A DNA stretch of 10,444 nucleotides from a virus (taxonomy: Duplodnaviria; Heunggongvirae; Uroviricota; Caudoviricetes): IMG/VR virus record IMGVR_UViG_2703718785_000025. One strand, given 5' to 3'. The position numbers were made by a program, and so were the translations under genes. Positions within the stretch are counted from its first letter, which is position 1. The number at the start of each line of letters is the position of its first letter. The notes under the pieces were generated by a model. That model saw only the letters and a program-made list of their open reading frames with translations, was not told the DNA's origin and did not search any database. Of the stretch, positions 1 to 10,444 are shown one piece after another.

Positions 1-1020
1 CTACTTGCTAACCACGAGCGGCAAATCCAGTGTTGGTGTGATTTTTGTTTTACGATCGTAAATCAACACCTGATTTTCTGTTTTATGCCCGCTGAAAATT
101 TGTTTGTCGCGACTGCTGCCTTCGTAATCTGAGATCCCCTTGGCTTTTATGTCGTGAAAATTGCACCCGAACGGAACGCCAACTTTTTGCTCGGCTGCGC
201 GTTTAGCCTGATTCCACCAGTTATTCAGCGTTTTAGCTATGACTTTCCCGCCTTTGGTTGTATTGATCACATATTCGCATGTACAGGAAGATACATTTCG
301 GGCTAACTGGATCGCTGTACGTAATCGCGGTGACCATTCCTTGATTTGTTTGGTGCCGGTTTTGTTTTGCTCAATGTAGATCCCTTTATCCATAATATCC
401 TGCCATTTCAACTCAAGCACATCACCGAGTCTTGCCGCACAGAGATAGGAAATCTCCATTGCAATGCGTAACTGTGGAATTGCTTCCGCATATATCGCCG
501 CATACTGTTCATCGGTGATGTAAACAGTGCGGGCTTTAAGAGAGAATTTTCTGACTCCTTTGCATGGGTTATTCTTCACATACCCACGCTCATATCCCCA
601 CCCGTATACTCGACTCAGGCTTGCCAGTTCATGATTTGCCTGGGTCTTGCTCTCAAGCCCTCGTTTATCCATGAAAATTCTTACCTGCTCAGTTTTGACA
701 TTATCAGCAAGCACTTTTCCGAATACCATCAGCAACGCCTTCTGATGTTGTCGATAATCTTTTTGGGTTCGGGGGGCCAGTTCTGTAAATGCAGGGGAGT
801 CCATAAACATGTGCCATAATTTAGCTACGGTCATTATGTTGTGGAGTTTTGCTTTTTCCAGTTCATAATTTTGCCAGACTTTAGCTACGCTGGTTTTCCG
901 CACTCTTCCTAGCCCTATACTTCTTGTACTTCCTTCGGGTTTCCACACGTAACTGTAACCATTCGATCTAACCCGCGGTGGCAGTACATTATCTTTTTTA
1001 TTTTTTCTTGGTCTTCCCAT
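1..1020 (-). CDS. int: Lambda-family tyrosine recombinase (prophage integrase)
   Basis: 339-aa ORF ending at the window edge (TAG at 1..3 on minus). N-terminus MGRPRK...LPPRVRSNGYSY resembles the lambda Int arm-binding region. C-terminal region (NFHD...GHKT...LIYDR) fits a tyrosine-recombinase catalytic tail. ATG at 1018..1020 with GAGG about 10 nt upstream; 5' end overlaps the xis 3' end as in lambda. Confidence 0.9.
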   Translation of the reverse strand: MGRPRKNKKDNVLPPRVRSNGYSYVWKPEGSTRSIGLGRVRKTSVAKVWQNYELEKAKLHNIMTVAKLWHMFMDSPAFTELAPRTQKDYRQHQKALLMVFGKVLADNVKTEQVRIFMDKRGLESKTQANHELASLSRVYGWGYERGYVKNNPCKGVRKFSLKARTVYITDEQYAAIYAEAIPQLRIAMEISYLCAARLGDVLELKWQDIMDKGIYIEQNKTGTKQIKEWSPRLRTAIQLARNVSSCTCEYVINTTKGGKVIAKTLNNWWNQAKRAAEQKVGVPFGCNFHDIKAKGISDYEGSSRDKQIFSGHKTENQVLIYDRKTKITPTLDLPLVVSK

Positions 1021-1240
1021 TGTTCAGCGCCTCAAAATCGGGTTCAGCAGAAACCAGTTCAGATGTTTTTGGCATCGTTGTCAGACCGTGTGGAATATCC
1101 CTGCGGAGAACTATGGGTTCGTTTTTAGGGCCGATTACAAATGGGATGCCGTGCAGTCTTAACTGGTGTTGCTGTTTTGTGTATCGCTCGTATTTCGTGA
1201 TCTCTTTAATCTCTGCTGGAGATAGAGTTAATTCGTACAT
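998..1240 (-). CDS. xis: Excisionase (lambda Xis-like)
   Basis: 80-aa product MYELTLSPAEIKE...NGKTKKK; the MY-LTL start and lysine-rich C-terminal tail resemble lambda Xis. ATG at 1238..1240 with AAAGG upstream. The longer 126-aa frame (to 1378) would overlap the exonuclease gene and was not used. Overlaps the int start by 23 nt. Confidence 0.7.
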   Translation of the reverse strand: MYELTLSPAEIKEITKYERYTKQQHQLRLHGIPFVIGPKNEPIVLRRDIPHGLTTMPKTSELVSAEPDFEALNNGKTKKK

Positions 1241-1307
1241 GTGGTCACGTGCCTTTACAGCATGACCGCCGCCACTATAGCTGGTGGGCGGCGATATGGG
1301 TTGAACA

Positions 1308-2749
1308 TCAAAAATCAGCCTGACTCGGGAGCAGTTTTTGCCAGATGGCTGAAACGTATTTCGCCTGGTAACGTGCATCGTTCAGAGCGTTATGGCGTTC
1401 ACCTTCGAATGGAATAGTCGTTCTTGCGTCGAAATCCATCACCAGTCCCAGAGCAACCATCGTTCTTACATCGCGATCATTGGTGTAACGCCACGGGCAG
1501 GGGATCCCCTGCCGTTCATATGAACGGCGTAAAATCACGTTGTCGAAAGTTGCACCGTTACCCCAGACCTGAACAAAAAATTCACCGGAGTTTTCGTCGA
1601 TAAATTCCCGTAATTGCAGCAGTGCATCATCTAACGGGATTTCATCGGTAAGAATGGCGGATTGCGCTTCGCGTGACTGTTTCAGCCACCACTTAATGGT
1701 GTCCCGATCAATGACTCCGCCAGCAGTTTCCAGATCGATAGTTTTGCTGAATTCTGGCCCCATCTCTCCGGTTTGCGGATCGAAAAATATTGCACCTATT
1801 GAGATAATCGGGGCATCAGGATTTTTTCCCATGGTTTCAAGGTCGATCATCAGATGAATCCCCGCTCTGCTGGTGGATGTGAGATTATGATGACCGTTCG
1901 CCTTAATTAAGGGATCTGACGCCTCGCCAGTTTCACTATCGCTGGCATGATGCTGATTGCCGCCAGTGTTCTCCTTGTGCTGATGCGCAGTGCCTTCCAT
2001 TTCCTCCGGATCATTTTCCTGAACTTCAGGCTGATTCTCTTCATCGAATATTTCCTGGTATGTTGCGTCACTTATCACCGCACCACAATCAGGGCAGCTA
2101 CCGCCGCCGGTCTGACCGCAGGCGGTGCAGGCTTTTTCCGGCTCCTGTTTCGTTTCTGGCTCGTTTTGTTGCGCATTTGGGCTGTTTTGTTCCGTTTTCT
2201 GGTCGTTCTGTTCCGATTCTTGCTGGTTCTGGTTCACAGAATCGCAGGTTTCAATCCCCTTCACCCATTTCGGATCATTCGGATCGCTAATCCCTTCAAC
2301 AAATTCACCACGTGATGCAGCAAGCAATTTATCGGCGTCAGGCTGGCTGATATTGGCTGCCTGCATAATTTTGTTTACTTCGTCAGCGGTAACTTTTACC
2401 GGCTCCGGTTGTACGGAATCTTCAGCGGTATCCACATTTTGCGGTAAGTCCGTGTATGTTCCGTTTTTGCGGGCAAGATATTCTTCTTTCGTGATTTCAG
2501 TAGCCCCGGCAGCCAGTGCCTTATCCAGACCAGAAAGTTTGTTTGCGCGACCGTATTTTTCGCCATCCTTGTCGGTGAAGAGGAAGTAGAACGGCCCCTC
2601 ACGCTCTACAGATGGTTCGACTTCCACTTTGCATTCGGTTTTTTCGTTGTCCGGAATTGCCGTTTCCACTGCATCAGTTTCTGGTACTGGCGACGAGAGA
2701 GTATCAGTTGCGCTCTGATTTGTTCCTTCATCTTCAAACACGCCCTTTG
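1308..2749 (-). CDS. Prophage exonuclease, C-terminal portion: Q/N/E-rich linker, CxxC-x9-CxxC zinc-ribbon motif and DEDDh (DnaQ-like) 3'-5' exonuclease domain; 5' end runs into the assembly gap
   Basis: Frame is open from the stop at 1308..1310 up to the first N at 2750. Exo motifs are visible in the translation: DLETMG (Exo I), WGNGATFDNVIL (Exo II), HNALNDARYQ (Exo III, H-x4-D). CTACGQTGGGSCPDCG gives the zinc-ribbon motif. The M at 2741 in the ORF track is a GTG and not the true start. Confidence 0.8.
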
Positions 2750-2850
2750 NNNNNNNNNNNNNNNNNNNNNNNNNNNNNNNNNNNNNNNNNNNNNNNNNNN
2801 NNNNNNNNNNNNNNNNNNNNNNNNNNNNNNNNNNNNNNNNNNNNNNNNNN
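2750..2850. other. Assembly or scaffold gap (101 N), true length unknown
   Basis: Uninterrupted run of n characters; coding frames on both sides are open into it. Confidence 0.97.
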
Positions 2851-3547
2851 TGATTTTTCCTGTTGAATTTTCAGTGTGCTGTTGATTGGCTCTGGCGCGG
2901 GCGAGATCAACAACAGACGTGTATTTTCCGGTTTCCTTGCGTTCACCTTCGCGACGTTTTTTCCAGATGCGCATCTCTGCCTGAATTTCGGGCCATTTGG
3001 CACCTGGCTTACATTTATGCTTAACCCACCCGATGGCATGCAGCTTAAGCTCCGGATACATGGCGTTAACTTCTGGCATTTTCATCAACGCTTCAACGAT
3101 ATGTCCGTCGAATGTTGCCATGTCTTCCTGCAACAGTTCCTGCGCGCTAATCACCATATCAACGGTGATGTTTTCACATGTGTCGAACTTAACCATGACA
3201 GCGTTCTGTACTTCAGGGGCCAGCTTGTCAAAAGTGACGTTTATCGGATCTGATTCAGTCTCAACCGGGACAAAGGAAGCAGACTCCTCATCCCAGCGGT
3301 TTTCCTGCATATATTCAGCATCCCAGGAATCGAGGGCAGGGCGGGGAATACCGGGTTTATCCTCGCAAACAAGAAATTTATAAGCGCAGTCCTGAGCAGC
3401 CGGATAATGTTCCAGGAATTGCCAGTGAAATTTTGCGCGGGCGCGACGTTCATCACCGGCTTCAATGGCAGTGGCTACAGCGACTGCACCTTCTTCCTTT
3501 ATTGCCTGTTCGTCCGGAATGGCGGCGCAAATAAAGACTTTACTCAT
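2851..3547 (-). CDS. Prophage exonuclease, N-terminal portion (probably the same gene as 1308..2749; proteins of this kind are often annotated exodeoxyribonuclease VIII-like)
   Basis: ATG at 3545..3547 with GAGGT about 8 nt upstream. 232 codons (MSKVFICAAIPDEQ...NSTGKI) are open to the gap edge. The apparent frame shift on the far side of the gap is expected if the gap length is arbitrary. Confidence 0.7.
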
Positions 3548-3641
3548 TTTGTTTTACCTCATTACAGATTTCAGGGTGAACGAATCCCTGCCATTGCTGG
3601 CATTTTTAATCCGTTGGTATGGTGTTAATATGGCTGGAGGG

Positions 3642-3809
3642 TTATCCAGCCGGTGTTTCGTTATTCAGGTACAGCGATACTTTTTTTACCGGGAGGCATT
3701 CACCAGAAATTTTTTGCTCGTCTCTTGCCTGGAGGCAGGATTCTTTACTGGCATAAATTCCGGTAATCACATTCTGTGATTCACCCGTTATAAGAAAAAC
3801 CGTCATCAT
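3642..3809 (-). CDS. Hypothetical small protein (55 aa)
   Basis: Hand translation of the minus strand gives MMTVFLITGESQNVITGIYASKESCLQARDEQKISGECLPVKKVSLYLNNETPAG. It sits 17 nt downstream of the 3827..4015 gene in operon-like spacing. No Shine-Dalgarno seen, and it is below the ORF-track length cutoff. Confidence 0.25.
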   Translation of the reverse strand: MMTVFLITGESQNVITGIYASKESCLQARDEQKISGECLPVKKVSLYLNNETPAG

Positions 3810-3826
3810 CAGTGCAAATGCTGAAG

Positions 3827-4015
3827 TTATTGACGTTCTCCGAAAATACCAAGTTCAAGAAGAGCAATTCGGGAAAGTATGGAATTATCATTGAGCAGAT
3901 AAGGCTCATATTTCCTCATATTAATGGCATCTTCAGTAAACTCCCGGTTACTGAGCAGAACACCAATATCAAAACAACCTTCAGACGTATTAACGTTTGG
4001 TAATAACGTTTCCAT
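3827..4015 (-). CDS. Hypothetical small protein (62 aa)
   Basis: Internal ATG at 4013..4015 of the 97-aa track ORF, with GAGGA 7 nt upstream. Product METLLPNVNTSEGCFDIGVLL...GIFGERQ. No family recognised. Confidence 0.45.
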   Translation of the reverse strand: METLLPNVNTSEGCFDIGVLLSNREFTEDAINMRKYEPYLLNDNSILSRIALLELGIFGERQ

Positions 4016-4032
4016 TATCGCGTCCTCAACAA

Positions 4033-4180
4033 TGAATTTTGTGATGCGGTGCCTGGTGCCTCCAGGTGACGTTAACCAGTTAACAATTAACGCCGGATAC
4101 AGAGAATCCACCCATAACACTGTTTTTGGTTTTAACTGTTCCGCGTGCGCTGAGCCGCATTCACCGCATCACAAAATTCA
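4033..4180. repeat. Perfect 19-bp inverted repeat flanking 110 bp
   Basis: TGAATTTTGTGATGCGGTG at 4033..4051 and its exact reverse complement CACCGCATCACAAAATTCA at 4162..4180. The left arm lies just upstream of the RBS of the 3827..4015 gene. The enclosed segment contains GTTAACCAGTTAAC (4071..4084). Confidence 0.7.
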
Positions 4181-4583
4181 CTTTAAAAAGGGCGGCAGAG
4201 CAGCCACGGAGTAAAACTGATACCGCCAAACGTCACCAGAAAATTGATAACAGAGGGCGTTGCAGCGGGGTTGTCACTTAAGCGTATGGTCAACCTGACA
4301 ACCCGGTGTCCTCAACTGGGGAAGGAATAACCCCGCCATACTTACCGCCGCGCCATTTCGCGGATTGCCACAACCGGAAGCGCACGGTCGACGAAAATTT
4401 AACGACAGGCTATCTATGAACCAGCTACCTCGCCGTGCGCTTTCGCGTTATGGTCTGACTTTTCAGGGAAATATCCTTTCAGTAAACTGTCAGTGCCGGA
4501 TGCTCACCCGTGTCCGGCGCACGCACTCCACCTCACCCGTGGAGAACTCCTTAATTACCAACCTTAGCTTCGTTGGTTAGCTA

Positions 4584-4802
4584 TTAACGCGGGTATGTAA
4601 TCATTCTGGCAATGCTTAATGCCGCTGCTTTTTCCAGATTGGTGATATCCTGCTCCAGAGCGGACAGATTTTCAGCCTGCTTAGCCCTGGCTTCATTGGC
4701 CCATTTCAGGTCCTGCGCTGCCTTAATTTTCTGGTGCATCCACTCATAAAGTTCATCATCGGTATAGTCTGGCGCGATGATGACGGGTTCTCGTTTCTGC
4801 AT
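4584..4802 (-). CDS. Hypothetical small protein (72 aa)
   Basis: ATG at 4800..4802 preceded by a strong AAGGAG 5 nt upstream. Product MQKREPVIIAPDYTDDELYEWMHQKIKAAQDLKWANEARAKQAENLSALEQDITNLEKAAA... No family recognised. Confidence 0.55.
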   Translation of the reverse strand: MQKREPVIIAPDYTDDELYEWMHQKIKAAQDLKWANEARAKQAENLSALEQDITNLEKAAALSIARMITYPR

Positions 4803-4894
4803 GTCGGCTCCTTGTGGTTAGCGCTGCCTGCTTTTAACCACGTCAGGCGAGGTGGTATCCTCTGAGGGGTCTGTTACTCGAGAGGAAATTGGTT

Positions 4895-5095
4895 ATGAAT
4901 ACAATCAAGTTTTCTTGCCCAGAATGTGGTGGCGAAGTCTTTGACACATCCTTTAAACCGCATGGCTCTGACAGTTTCGCGGGAGCCATCTGCAAAAATT
5001 GTGGTCACCTTGTAACTGAAGATGAGTCCTCGCAGTTTGATGACGAAATCGTTGACAATATCTTCGGTGCACTCACCAGAGACTTTCTGAAGTAA
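4895..5095 (+). CDS. Small zinc-ribbon protein (66 aa), CPEC...CKNC
   Basis: ATG at 4895 with GAGG in AGAGGAAA 7 to 8 nt upstream; the track start at 4889 is TTG. Two CxxC pairs (CPECGG and CKNCGH) spaced 21 residues apart, with an acidic C-terminal tail. Confidence 0.5.
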   Translation: MNTIKFSCPECGGEVFDTSFKPHGSDSFAGAICKNCGHLVTEDESSQFDDEIVDNIFGALTRDFLK

Positions 5096-5473
5096 AGGCG
5101 CATACCGCTTAGTTACCGCTCTGATAATTCTTACCTGTCCGGCAATGGCGCTGATATCAATATAAAGCGCCATCGCTGTTTCTTTGCTGATCCCTGGATG
5201 CCTTCCATTCTGATGTTTGACTTCGCCCACTGAGAAATCCTCTGTTTCCCCTTAACGCCGGGGTAGCGGAACAAAAAACCTGCTGCATAGTTAAACGTAA
5301 TCCCCGCCGTCATGTTCATACGCCTCAGGCTGGCTACTTAACCCCTGACCACTGCCGGGTAACTCGAAGTATTGCCCTGCGTTCTGTGGGGCGGGGTGGG
5401 TTTATGGATACAATTTACAAATTAAAATTTAACTGGTCAACATGTTTATTATTAAATTTGTAATTGCGGGCTG

Positions 5474-5502
5474 TTGCATCAGTCCCAAAATGGGACTACT
5501 AT
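5474..5502 (+). promoter_or_regulatory. Putative higBA promoter with operator-like inverted repeat
   Basis: -35-like TTGCAT (5474..5479), 17-bp spacer, -10-like TACTAT (5497..5502). The spacer holds a 7-bp inverted repeat AGTCCCA-aaa-TGGGACT (5481..5497). The predicted transcript start is within a few nt of the higB ATG at 5509 (little or no leader, no SD seen). Confidence 0.4.
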
Positions 5503-5508
5503 ACAGTT

Positions 5509-5811
5509 ATGAAGATTATCTCAGTTAAAACACTCAGGGATTTTTGGGCGGAGAATCCTGATGCAGAACAACCGCTAAGGGCATGGGTGGATGAGGCGGC
5601 AAAAGCTGACTGGAAAAGCCCAGCAGACATTAAGGCACAATACCGAACGGCCAGTATATTGAAAAACCGGCGCGTGGTATTCAACATAAAAGGTAATCAT
5701 TACCGTTTAATTGTTGCAATTGCGTATCAGCGAGGATGGGTATTTGTTAAATTCATCGGAAACCACAAGGAATACGATGCTATTGATGCTGATACCATCG
5801 AACTGGAGTAA
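5509..5811 (+). CDS. higB: Type II toxin, HigB family (RelE/ParE superfamily)
   Basis: 100-aa product MKIISVKTLRDFWAENP...FNIKGNHYRLIVAIAY...GNHKEYDAID, resembling E. coli HigB as recalled from memory. Toxin is upstream of antitoxin, the reversed order typical of HigBA. The track start at 5464 adds 15 residues with no support. Confidence 0.85.
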   Translation: MKIISVKTLRDFWAENPDAEQPLRAWVDEAAKADWKSPADIKAQYRTASILKNRRVVFNIKGNHYRLIVAIAYQRGWVFVKFIGNHKEYDAIDADTIELE

Positions 5812-5813
5812 GC

Positions 5814-6173
5814 ATGAACATCAAACCTATTCGTACAGAGCAAGATTATGAAGCCGCGTTGCGTGCTGTTGAACCCATGTTCGACAATGAGCCCGAAATT
5901 GACACGCCTGAGGGGGATTTTTTTGAGGTGATGTGTTTGCTAATAGAGGAATATGAAAAAAAACATTATCCCATTGAGCCACCATCCCCAATTGAAGCTA
6001 TAAGATTTCGCATGGAACAGCAGGGGCTGACTGTGAAAGATTTGGAACCCGCAATTGGGAAAAAAAATCGGGTTTATGAGGTGTTGAATGGTACCAGAAG
6101 CCTTACGTTACCAATGATTCGCCGTCTTCATAATCAATTTGGTATCCCCCTGGAAAGCCTGGTTGGATTATAA
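5814..6173 (+). CDS. higA: Type II antitoxin, HigA family (XRE-type HTH at the C-terminus)
   Basis: 119 aa; ATG is 2 nt after the higB stop with GGAG 5 nt upstream. C-terminal HTH region LTVKDLEPAIGKKNRVYEVLNGTRSLTLPMIRRLHNQFGIP resembles HigA. Confidence 0.85.
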   Translation: MNIKPIRTEQDYEAALRAVEPMFDNEPEIDTPEGDFFEVMCLLIEEYEKKHYPIEPPSPIEAIRFRMEQQGLTVKDLEPAIGKKNRVYEVLNGTRSLTLPMIRRLHNQFGIPLESLVGL

Positions 6174-6189
6174 AATCTGCTAGTCATTT

Positions 6190-6238
6190 GCCTGATGCTC
6201 GTTCCAGAAAAGGAATGCATCAGGCAGTTTTGTTTTTC
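6190..6238 (+). terminator. Putative rho-independent terminator after higA
   Basis: Stem GCCTGATGC (6190..6198) pairs with GCATCAGGC (6217..6225), followed by GTTTTGTTTTT. The stem overlaps the stop codon of the convergent repressor gene. Confidence 0.5.
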
Positions 6239-6612
6239 TGCCGCAGTAACTCTTCAAGTTTCCGTTTATAGAAATCGCGTTTTTGCTCCATATCACGAAT
6301 GATCTGCTCTGCGTCGCTTTGAGGTAACTCATCTAAAAGCGATATGATTTTTCGTTGTTGTTCTGTAAGTTGCGGTTGGTTGTCATTACTGGATACAGCC
6401 ATTTTATCGCCGAGAGTTTCTTCTTCCATAAAGAACCAATGGACGGGATGTTGTGAGAGCTCTGCTAATTTTTCCAGTTTATCCATTCTTGGCATCACGC
6501 CTTTCAACCAACCTTGCACGGATTGGGGTTTTACACCAAGACGTCTTCCCAGCTCTGACTGGTTTATATTCAATTCCTGCAACACCTGCTGAAGGCGTTT
6601 TACAAAGATCAT
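6220..6612 (-). CDS. Prophage repressor, HTH XRE/cI-type, RacR-like, with no S24 peptidase domain
   Basis: ATG at 6610..6612 with GAGGGG upstream; the track start at 6618 is GTG. 130 aa: MIFVKRLQQVLQELNINQSELGRRLGVKPQSVQGWLKG..., with a C-terminal charged, coiled-coil-like tail. Divergent from the Cro-like gene. Confidence 0.8.
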   Translation of the reverse strand: MIFVKRLQQVLQELNINQSELGRRLGVKPQSVQGWLKGVMPRMDKLEKLAELSQHPVHWFFMEEETLGDKMAVSSNDNQPQLTEQQRKIISLLDELPQSDAEQIIRDMEQKRDFYKRKLEELLRQKNKTA

Positions 6613-6667
6613 CACCACCCCTCGTAAACTAGTTCCGCGATCCTACAGAAAAAATTGATAAGTGGCA

Positions 6668-6706
6668 TTACAAATAGAAGTTGAAATTTAAATTTAAATT
6701 TGTAAT
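6668..6706. promoter_or_regulatory. Operator-like inverted repeat in the divergent repressor/Cro-like promoter region
   Basis: ATTACAAAT (6668..6676) and ATTTGTAAT (6698..6706) form a perfect 9-bp inverted repeat 21 bp apart. Three tandem AAATTT units lie between them (6685..6702). Rightward -35-like TTGAAA at 6681..6686 and -10-like AATTAT at 6704..6709. Confidence 0.5.
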
Positions 6707-6738
6707 TATCGGTGTCATCGTAAAGTTCGGAGGGAAAC

Positions 6739-6999
6739 ATGCAAAAAAGTACTCAAGTGAAAATCCTGTCAATAATGAGCCAATCAGAATTAGGGCGTCG
6801 TCTTGGTAAAACACCGCAAACCATAAGTGGGTGGTTTAAAAAACGAGTGCCAGCGGAGGAGGTTATACCAGCATGTGAGGCGCTTGACTGGGGAGTAACT
6901 CCGCATGAATTGCGCCCTGATAAATACCCTAATCCAACCGATGGTTTACCTGTTGAGTATCAGGCTAACGCACAAGCAGCGGCGGGAGTTGATTCATGA
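6739..6999 (+). CDS. Cro-like HTH protein (YdaS-like)
   Basis: 86 aa; GGAGGG 3 to 8 nt upstream of the ATG. HTH SQSELGRRLGKTPQTISGWFKK is nearly identical to the repressor recognition region. The ...PAEEVIPACEAL...ELRPD region recalls Rac YdaS. Stop overlaps the next start (ATGA). Confidence 0.8.
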   Translation: MQKSTQVKILSIMSQSELGRRLGKTPQTISGWFKKRVPAEEVIPACEALDWGVTPHELRPDKYPNPTDGLPVEYQANAQAAAGVDS

Positions 7000-9758: not shown

Positions 9759-10151
9759 ATGGCAAAAGAATTTACACCAGAAGAGCGGGAAGAAGTGAAG
9801 GCGCGCATTGTGGAATTCGTGCGCCTGAGCGGACGAGAAACTTTTCGACAACTGGCAGATAAAACGGGTGTCAGTAAGACCGCTATTCGTCGTTTATCTG
9901 GTGCGCTTGCGGCCAGTGGTGATGTCTGGCTCTCTGGTTGCGGGGTATTTCCATCAGAGCAGGCGTATCGCGTATGGCGTAAGACACCGGAGAAGGCTGC
10001 TGACCCGACACTGATTCGAAAGTTACCTGACGGAGAAATACGTCGTTACAACAGACGGCAGAACATAATTTGTCGTGAGTGCCGCCAGAGCGAAGTTATG
10101 CAGCGTGTGCTGGCGTTCTATCGGGGAAACTTTCAGGAGGTGATGGAGTGA
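9759..10151 (+). CDS. Hypothetical protein with a probable HTH or winged-helix segment (130 aa)
   Basis: ATG at 9759 with GGAGG 5 nt upstream; the track start at 9744 is TTG. Segment ETFRQLADKTGVSKTAIRRLSGALAASGDV looks HTH-like. CRECRQ motif near the C-terminus. Confidence 0.6.
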   Translation: MAKEFTPEEREEVKARIVEFVRLSGRETFRQLADKTGVSKTAIRRLSGALAASGDVWLSGCGVFPSEQAYRVWRKTPEKAADPTLIRKLPDGEIRRYNRRQNIICRECRQSEVMQRVLAFYRGNFQEVME

Positions 10152-10444
10152 GGGTGAGAGTTTATATTGCCGGTCCAATGACGGGATATGAAAATTTCAA
10201 CCGTGAGGCGTTTCACAAGGCGGAAGAGGAACTGAAACGGGAAGGGCATACCGTCTTAACTCCGGCAGTACTTCCGGACGGGCTGACACAGCCGCACTAC
10301 ATGGATATTTGCATGGCAATGATTCGTTGTGTGGATGCGATTTACATGCTGAATGGCTGGCAGCGGTCAGCGGGCGCTAAGGCAGAGCTGGCACTGGCGG
10401 AGAAACTGGGGCATGCGGTGATTTATCAGGAGGTGGCTCGATGA
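10148..10444 (+). CDS. DUF4406-family protein (nucleoside 2-deoxyribosyltransferase-like fold)
   Basis: Conserved N-terminus RVYIAGPMTGYENFNREAF plus ...LNGWQRSAGAKAELALAEKLGHAV. Probable GTG start at 10148 overlapping the upstream stop (GTGA), with GGAGG 7 nt upstream. The track's 10079 start is also GTG and would overlap the upstream gene by 73 nt. Stop is at the window end. Confidence 0.7.
   Translation: MRVRVYIAGPMTGYENFNREAFHKAEEELKREGHTVLTPAVLPDGLTQPHYMDICMAMIRCVDAIYMLNGWQRSAGAKAELALAEKLGHAVIYQEVAR

Follow-up and report, generated by a model that had tools for sequence, protein, structure and literature searches.

Which kind of exonuclease occupies the recombination slot of a lambdoid prophage when no gene for an annealing protein lies beside it, and could such an enzyme still act in recombination? 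This question is raised by the IMG/VR record IMGVR_UViG_2703718785_000025 (Caudoviricetes), a stretch of 10,444 nucleotides (hereafter the window) that holds the integration and early-left genes of an Escherichia coli lambdoid prophage together with its immunity-to-replication part. A large gene on its minus strand (1308..3547) is interrupted by a run of Ns. A sequence-only reading, made from the letters and their open reading frames (ORFs), had described it as a split exonuclease gene with a DEDDh 3'-5' domain, which holds the recombination slot but is probably not a classical recombineering exonuclease. Our results support this description: the nuclease domain is of the DEDDh type and no annealing-protein gene accompanies it. 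We propose, with a probability of roughly 55%, that the gene product is a partner-independent exonuclease of DNA 3' ends that belongs to the early-left operon, and not a recombinase of the Red/RecET type. The C-terminal DEDDh domain would remove nucleotides from 3' ends by means of two metal ions, a RecE-like body with its zinc ribbon would direct this domain to a place or partner shared with RecE, and the outcome would be a stand-alone 3'-end degrading nuclease made upon prophage induction.

A single gene across the assembly gap

The two pieces of the gene were compared with 5426 complete E. coli genomes by megablast of window positions 1240-3600. On the minus strand, the piece upstream of the N-run (101 N, 2750-2850) starts with an ATG at 3547 and is open up to the gap (697 nt, amino acids (aa) 1-232), and the downstream piece is open in frame 2 from 2749 to a stop codon at 1308-1310 (1442 nt). 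Both flanks were 100% identical in many complete E. coli chromosomes, and the span was 2572 nt in every listed chromosome match versus 2361 nt in the query. Thus, the 101-N placeholder stands for 312 nt, rather than for ∼100 nt. In NZ_AP018808.1 the two pieces are the exact first 697 nt and last 1442 nt of one annotated coding sequence of 2451 nt, whose product has 816 aa (RefSeq WP_000048499.1, 'exonuclease'), and the 312-nt fill is stop-free and in frame (697+312+1442 = 2451). The two pieces are therefore one 2451-nt gene, as the sequence-only reading had assumed when it put the product at a minimum of about 710 aa. The hidden bases run from the second base of codon 233 to the first base of codon 337, with codons 234-336 in full, and comprise most of a helical domain (aa 240-344). 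It should be noted that the placeholder, with 101 N instead of 100, does not preserve the reading frame, so that ORF lists prolong the N-terminal piece in an incorrect frame; in the mechanical ORF list this piece appears as an ORF at 2606-3547.

A second search across the gap was carried out with window positions 2350-3250 (a 901-nt query). It yielded 4452 matching records, from which a 60-row spread of the ranking was inspected. Both flanks were found in one place in 3479 complete genomes, and every both-flank record of the spread covered 1111-1115 nt (nearly all 1112 nt), which again gives a fill of ∼312 nt. A near-full copy of the gene was present in ∼64% of complete E. coli genomes. The visible exception was the K-12 lineage, in which the N-terminal flank alone matched because IS2 cuts the corresponding gene, ydfE, at codon 256. 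This site falls inside the stretch that the gap hides in the window, and assemblies often break at repeats; strains of this type (for example, E2865) carry up to 7-9 paralogous copies of the gene family, which may be the cause of the assembly break at 2750-2850. It could thus be argued that the N-run conceals an insertion element or a rearrangement and that the gene is broken in the source strain, as ydfE is in K-12. We consider this highly improbable: the flanks are 100% identical to intact alleles, their ends lie 312 nt apart rather than abutting at an insertion point, and all sampled genomes with both flanks carry the ∼312-nt fill.

A DEDDh nuclease domain on a RecE-like body

The C-terminal part of the protein (aa 635-806, 1341..1856; this and all other parts of the gene are on the minus strand) matched the family PF16473 (Rv2179c-like 3'-5' exonuclease) with 221.3 bits against a cutoff of 27 (E = 9.7e-66), covering profile positions 2-177 of 177. 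This places the domain inside the DEDD family, as had been concluded from its motifs DLET (aa 639-642), FDNV (aa 738-741) and H-x4-D (H789-x4-D794). In a four-sequence alignment, residues D639, E641, D739, H789 and D794 correspond to the catalytic residues D7, E9, D119, H186 and D191 of phage T4 DexA, and all five are invariant. The catalytic motifs were intact in 76 of 77 related loci.

The middle third of the protein, the origin of which the sequence-only reading had missed, is homologous to RecE (exonuclease VIII of the K-12 prophage Rac). On the basis of BLASTP, aa 262-618 align with residues 277-590 of K-12 RecE (E = 3e-56, 38% identity overall), and identity is ∼75% over aa 466-618, including the CxxC...CxxC motif, as estimated from the printed alignment. 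K-12 RecE has 866 aa, with an N-terminal PF06630 domain (Exonuc_VIII) and a PDDEXK-type nuclease domain (PF12684) at aa 614-849, and the homology stops just before the latter. PF12684 is absent from the window protein, and a seed made of RecE residues 595-865 gave no phmmer match to it. This agrees with the PD-(D/E)XK class to which the sequence-only reading assigned the RecE nuclease. PF06630 was likewise absent in the Pfam scan. The NCBIfam RecE equivalog NF007259 scored 259.7 bits versus a cutoff of 1269, with only the middle of the model matching. The window protein thus resembles RecE as a large multi-domain protein of the early-left slot with a zinc ribbon and an acidic linker, whereas RecE combines a PF06630 head with a 5'-3' PD-(D/E)XK nuclease and is followed by recT, and the window gene is followed by xis. 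Judged by these alignments, the window protein combines a body like that of RecE with another head and another nuclease.

The product of the whole gene matches PHROG 2082 over its full length, and its architecture could be traced with an AlphaFold2 (AF2) model and the RecE alignment. The N-terminal head (precomputed Pfam label YdfE_N, PF27430; aa 1-206, 2930..3547) is predicted to consist of an alpha/beta subdomain (aa 1-95) and a helical subdomain (aa 105-206), with a predicted local distance difference test (pLDDT) score of 88. It is followed by the mostly gap-hidden helical domain (pLDDT 90-97). The post-gap middle (aa 338-465, 2364..2747), weakly homologous to RecE residues 336-445, holds the last part of this helical domain, a disordered segment and, at aa 385-440 (2439-2606, pLDDT 88-96), a small beta/alpha domain. 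The next segment (aa 466-503, 2250..2363), DKLLAASRGEFVEGISDPNDPKWVKGI, is near-identical to RecE 452-482 and gave a partial match to NCBIfam PRK09709. Both features that had been noticed beside the catalytic domain proved to be real. The low-complexity linker (aa 504-541, 2136..2249, pLDDT <50) contains 9 Q, 7 E and 6 N, that is, 22 of 38 residues, and the four-Cys zinc ribbon (aa 542-560, 2079..2135; C544, C547, C555 and C558) is conserved in RecE as CNACGQTGGDNCPDCGAV. An acidic linker that is predicted to be disordered (aa 561-634, 1857..2078), in which the RecE homology ends at aa 618, leads to the DEDDh domain. The latter was modelled poorly (pLDDT 30-55) because the alignment took in only three non-identical DEDDh-bearing sequences, and we draw no residue-level argument from the model. 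All matches of a full-length homologue search were E. coli proteins with at least 90% identity, and the Pfam labels YdfE_N and YdfE_C (PF27432) were precomputed for all 120 relatives at 90-99% identity.

Lack of an annealing-protein partner

The occurrence of partner genes was analyzed in 80 IMG/VR loci (L035-L114) with a DEDDh domain at least 90% identical to that of the window protein. All ORFs within up to 8 kb on each side were searched (E ≤1e-5), the queries being RecT (two seeds), Bet, Erf, a probable Rad52-like domain that is described below, lambda Exo, Gam and the nuclease of RecE. None of the 80 loci matched any of these queries. By the same procedure, RecT was present in 80 of 80 loci found via the RecE nuclease domain, most of which are near-identical Rac copies, so that this result is a control of the method and not 80 independent observations. 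Searches of the window and of 18.5 kb of the matching chromosome (E2865) detected no relative of RecT, Bet, Erf, the Rad52-like domain, Gam or lambda Exo, and no annealase was found at the loci of the phages mEp460 and vB_EcoS-813R8, both of which are ordered dicB, ydfD, exonuclease, xis and int. The earlier observation that no Bet/RecT-like gene lies between the exonuclease gene and xis therefore extends to loci beyond the window. In Salmonella phage SPN3UB, a RecE-type protein is paired with RecT. The partner gene tracks the PD-(D/E)XK nuclease domain and not the body of the protein.

The gene was also compared with the Red system of lambda. The exonuclease of that system is encoded at the same place, a lambdoid phage's early-left operon, but Exo is a 226-aa PD-(D/E)XK 5'-3' enzyme with bet and gam as neighbouring genes, and the window is devoid of Exo, Bet and Gam relatives. 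Thus, of the two components expected of a Red/RecET system, neither an adjacent annealing gene nor a PD-(D/E)XK 5'-3' exonuclease was found, the DEDDh domain being the only nuclease domain of the protein. With a polarity opposite to that of RecE and lambda Exo and with no RecT/Bet partner, the enzyme should be unable to make 3' tails for annealases, which argues against a role of the Red/RecET type.

The protein might nevertheless be a recombination exonuclease after all, using its RecE-like body to work with an annealase or strand-exchange protein that is provided by the host or encoded at a distance. Its slot between kil-like genes and xis and the region shared with RecE (aa 262-618) would fit such a role, and the same head is fused elsewhere to RecE-type nucleases and, beside a Gam-like gene, to a probable Rad52-like annealase. 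In addition, RecE in its full-length form reportedly increases linear-linear recombination, and the function of its long non-catalytic region has been described as unknown (PMC11611040). We regard this alternative as quite unlikely, since a DEDDh enzyme would degrade the very 3' strand that RecT/Bet-type annealases need, and both the contrast in partner genes (0/80 versus 80/80 loci) and the annealase-free 18.5 kb of chromosome speak against it.

Nearest relatives of the nuclease domain and its likely substrate

T4 DexA (PDB 8KEL/8KEN) provided the only solved structures that were retrieved by sequence (E = 5e-7 for one sequence alone and 4.5e-17 when a small profile was used). It shares PF16473 and the five catalytic residues with the window protein, whereas it is a stand-alone protein of 227 aa with extra loops, has only 27% identity and carries Trp152 where the window protein has Thr759. 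The Mycobacterium tuberculosis protein Rv2179c is the namesake of PF16473 and belongs to the same family, but is an exoribonuclease according to the Pfam description, and no Rv2179c chain was returned by the PDB profile search at E up to 1. Since neither sequence nor profile searches of the PDB retrieved it, Rv2179c appears to be more distant than DexA.

DexA and its stand-alone E. coli homologue EcD have been described recently (Kang et al., NAR 2025, PMC12153337). According to that study, EcD cuts DNA containing 5-hydroxymethylcytosine (5hmC) and protects against T4 when plasmid-borne, W152 of DexA stacks on 5hmC and its replacement (W152A) abolished activity on T4 DNA, and the tetramer-forming D90 of DexA is replaced in EcD by Ala78, which marks it as a defence-type variant. 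By way of a published EcD primer, we recovered an EcD-like protein of 189 aa from six viral contigs. It starts with MIDTET, has Ala at position 78 as in the paper, belongs to PF16473 as DexA does, and is 38% identical to aa 637-809 of the window protein over the whole domain. The idea that EcD might be a fragment of the window gene was ruled out, as the primers give MIDTET..., which matches this 189-aa protein of only 38% identity.

On the basis of these relatives, the substrate is most likely DNA rather than RNA, because the nearest characterised ones, DexA and EcD, are DNases and the body is common to DNA-processing proteins. An exoribonuclease like Rv2179c, which would trim the 3' ends of phage or host RNA, has to be considered as well. 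The family bears the name of Rv2179c, RefSeq often uses '3'-5' exoribonuclease', and the small RNA (sRNA) DicF, whose precursor could be a target, is encoded ∼640 nt upstream on the same strand. We give little credence to this alternative in view of the DNase activity of DexA and EcD, the failure of the profile search to return Rv2179c, and a body that also occurs in RecE, which is a DNA exonuclease, and that relatives carry together with a probable DNA annealase.

Several residues allow a comparison with EcD, which is grouped with DexA as a hmC-recognising exonuclease (HREX) and has a DEDDh domain of the same family; the EcD-like protein is also located on viral or prophage contigs. The equivalent of DexA W152 is Thr759 in the window protein and that of D169 is D775, at which the alignment is less well anchored. 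D90 is retained as D711 (S87 corresponds to Pro708). EcD, by contrast, is a stand-alone enzyme that keeps the Trp and has Ala in place of D90, and the window protein has a 630-aa body, Thr759 and D711. Thus, by the criteria of PMC12153337, its DEDDh domain would be classified as a relative, and not a member, of the EcD-type enzymes. In addition, the EcD-like gene was found directly upstream of a gene for a Dam-like DNA methyltransferase (LKWVGGKSR ... DPPY; L020 4110-5953, also in L021, L023 and L026), and the C-terminus of this methyltransferase carries the zinc-ribbon module of YdfE and RecE (C.ACG..GGG.CPD.G.V.GDATY). This suggests that the 'bacterial' EcD is carried by prophages and that the zinc ribbon is a portable module.

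Codon 759 (1482..1484, ACC for Thr in the window) stood out when the DEDDh domains of the 80 loci, 33 of them distinct, were compared over 180 columns. Although 127 of the 180 columns were invariant, position 759 had an entropy of 2.04 bits versus 1.06 bits for the next most variable column. The residue was Tyr, Cys, Thr, Asp, His, Ser or Asn and never Trp, and the codons were TAC, TGC, ACC, GAC, CAC, AGC and AAC, with changes in the first two bases and a fixed third one. Flanking synonymous differences suggest that several independent changes have taken place at this codon. Such variability suggests that the target of the enzyme may vary, as in a conflict with other phages or with inhibitors.

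These data bear directly on the possibility that the protein is an anti-phage nuclease of the HREX type, which would destroy hydroxymethylated or otherwise modified DNA of superinfecting phages and thereby protect the lysogen or the induced cell. It belongs to one Pfam family with DexA and the EcD-like protein, with 38% identity to the latter, has an equivalent of D169, and has its hypervariable codon at the very position that is tied to 5hmC recognition in DexA; EcD itself reportedly protects against T4 (PMC12153337). On the other side, the residue at this position is Thr in the window protein and never Trp in its relatives, the W152A exchange having abolished the activity of DexA on T4 DNA, and the hallmark of EcD, loss of D90, is absent. 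PADLOC gave only a weak, generic DEDDh match, the HREX system being newer than the PADLOC library. Finally, the gene lies deep in the early-left region, which by analogy with the Qin prophage would be off in lysogens, and no promoter signal above chance was observed. Lack of the Trp, retention of the D90 equivalent and a position in an arm that is repressor-controlled in Qin appear to weaken a simple EcD-like defence reading, which we consider rather improbable.

Exchange of heads and C-terminal domains

An exhaustive search with aa 1-232 revealed only 97 cluster representatives in 1.84 billion proteins. We examined 44 long representatives and grouped those tails that were long enough by BLAST. 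Three representatives had a DEDDh domain, three a RecE-type PDDEXK domain, ∼16-20 a conserved domain of ∼260 aa and nine a further, unknown domain. The motif KKSLTDAxKKALSxLGF is present in the ∼260-aa domain, which gave weak matches to Rad52_Rad22 (E = 0.027 and 0.12) and whose stand-alone phage homologues have been labelled RAD52-like annealing protein by some depositors; a PDB profile search with this domain found nothing. It is a probable Rad52-like annealase fused to the RecE-like body, a label taken only from the weak Pfam matches and the depositors' annotations. Proteins that combine it with a YdfE_N head include P0123, P0128, P0129 and P0134, and the gene for P0123 (L033 5001-7337) is preceded by a Gam-like gene and followed by Gp157, Exc and Int. 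In the fourth group, a YdfE_N head is joined to a domain of PHROG 26058, a family of unknown function with no Pfam match (P0130, P0185, P0189, P0193, P0197, P0202, P0211, P0213 and P0214).

The heads are exchanged as well. Among the 80 DEDDh loci, 46 have a YdfE_N head and 27 a RecE_N head, and the protein of vB_EcoS-813R8 (L031 4194-6635, 813 aa) consists of a RecE N-terminal domain, the middle region and a DEDDh domain, again with no recT. As far as these domain combinations can tell, the proteins have their middle region in common, and both the heads and the C-terminal domains on either side of it are swapped. It is tempting to view the YdfE/RecE body as a portable platform for swappable effectors of DNA ends, namely nucleases of the 5'-3' PD-(D/E)XK and 3'-5' DEDDh types, a Rad52-like annealase and an unknown domain, in which case the DEDDh form could be, rather than a recombination enzyme, a conflict nuclease whose substrate is set by residue 759; this is a tentative idea that we think is probably not correct in full.

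An intact counterpart of ydfE and its genomic neighbourhood

The surroundings of the gene were compared with those of K-12 prophage Qin, and the gene order matches (dicA, ydfABC, dicF, dicB, ydfD, ydfE and intQ). The exonuclease gene lies in the early-left arm, to the repressor's side of the immunity region. All of the following genes are on the minus strand. A tyrosine integrase gene (1-1020) and a DUF4224 excisionase-like (xis-like) gene (998-1240), located 67 nt past the stop codon of the exonuclease gene, form one side. On the other side are a ydfD-like DUF1482 gene (3642-3809), dicB (3827-4015), the sRNA gene for DicF (4190-4241; Rfam RF00039, 75 bits) between ydfC and dicB, ydfC itself (4584-4802) and a gene for a helix-turn-helix (HTH) repressor (6220-6612). 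By analogy with Qin, the ydfD-like gene, dicB, DicF and the exonuclease gene presumably belong to one operon. Residues 1-256 of the window protein are 97% identical to the product of the Qin pseudogene ydfE, which likewise has dicF, dicB and ydfD upstream and int downstream. However, the K-12 gene is cut by IS2 at codon 256 and has lost everything after this point, including the nuclease, whereas the window gene is complete. Given this identity and shared context, the window gene is best described as the intact form of K-12 ydfE, a relationship that the sequence-only reading had not drawn, and databases already list it under the name of a 3'-5' exonuclease.

With regard to expression, the operon that holds ydfE in K-12 Qin is silenced by the DicA repressor. 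The dicB gene comes from a family that others have reported to provide phage resistance, which would favour the HREX-type reading. A scan of positions 1000-6800 for promoters and terminators gave counts no higher than those in shuffled sequence, so no claim on separate expression of the gene is made.

Some other genes of the window were also identified. A HigB/HigA toxin-antitoxin pair (5509-6173, plus strand) is found between the gene for the repressor and the block from ydfC to dicB, on the strand opposite to the early-left genes; K-12 Qin holds ydfA and ydfB at this place. Between ydfC and HigBA, a plus-strand gene (4895-5095) specifies a small protein with a CxxC...CxxC pattern (RefSeq 'ECs_2282 family putative zinc-binding protein'). 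The window ends on the right with a DUF4406-type gene (10148-10444, plus strand; VYIAGPMTG...), and a similar ORF (L020 6430-6780) occurs near the EcD-like gene.

Considerations that weigh against the proposed function

Several points count against the proposal of a partner-independent DNA 3'-end exonuclease. First, we found no experimental work in the literature on ydfE, its intact homologues or the fused protein. Second, PF16473 is named after an exoribonuclease, and the RefSeq name is sometimes '3'-5' exoribonuclease'. Third, neither of the two sets of loci used for the partner analysis represents independent samples, considering the identity of at least 90% within the DEDDh set and the predominance of Rac copies in the RecE set. 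Fourth, the variability of codon 759 partly tracks lineage and is lower in the subset with a YdfE_N head, and, given the low quality of the AF2 model for the DEDDh domain, residue 759 is equated with DexA W152 on the basis of the four-sequence alignment only. Finally, structure searches with the scaffold domains gave no informative match, so that delivery of the nuclease by this scaffold is something we infer.

Meaning for the gene family

The gene is already catalogued and very common and, as first described, is not new: an identical RefSeq protein exists, a PHROGs family covers its full length, Pfam families cover the structured parts, and about two-thirds of complete E. coli genomes carry it, which makes it an ordinary gene. 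What may be new is that domains are shuffled around a middle region like that of RecE and that one codon is hypervariable; these two points should be taken as leads and not as conclusions.

For the annotation of such prophage genes, our results indicate that the common label 'exodeoxyribonuclease VIII / RecE' is wrong, and, given the opposite polarity class and the lack of RecT, these genes should not be mined as recombineering exonucleases. The hypervariable codon at the presumed base-recognition site offers a cheap and testable lead to the substrate of the enzyme. Moreover, the non-catalytic region of RecE appears as a shared body that is joined to at least four different C-terminal domains, and this would provide a comparative handle on its function.

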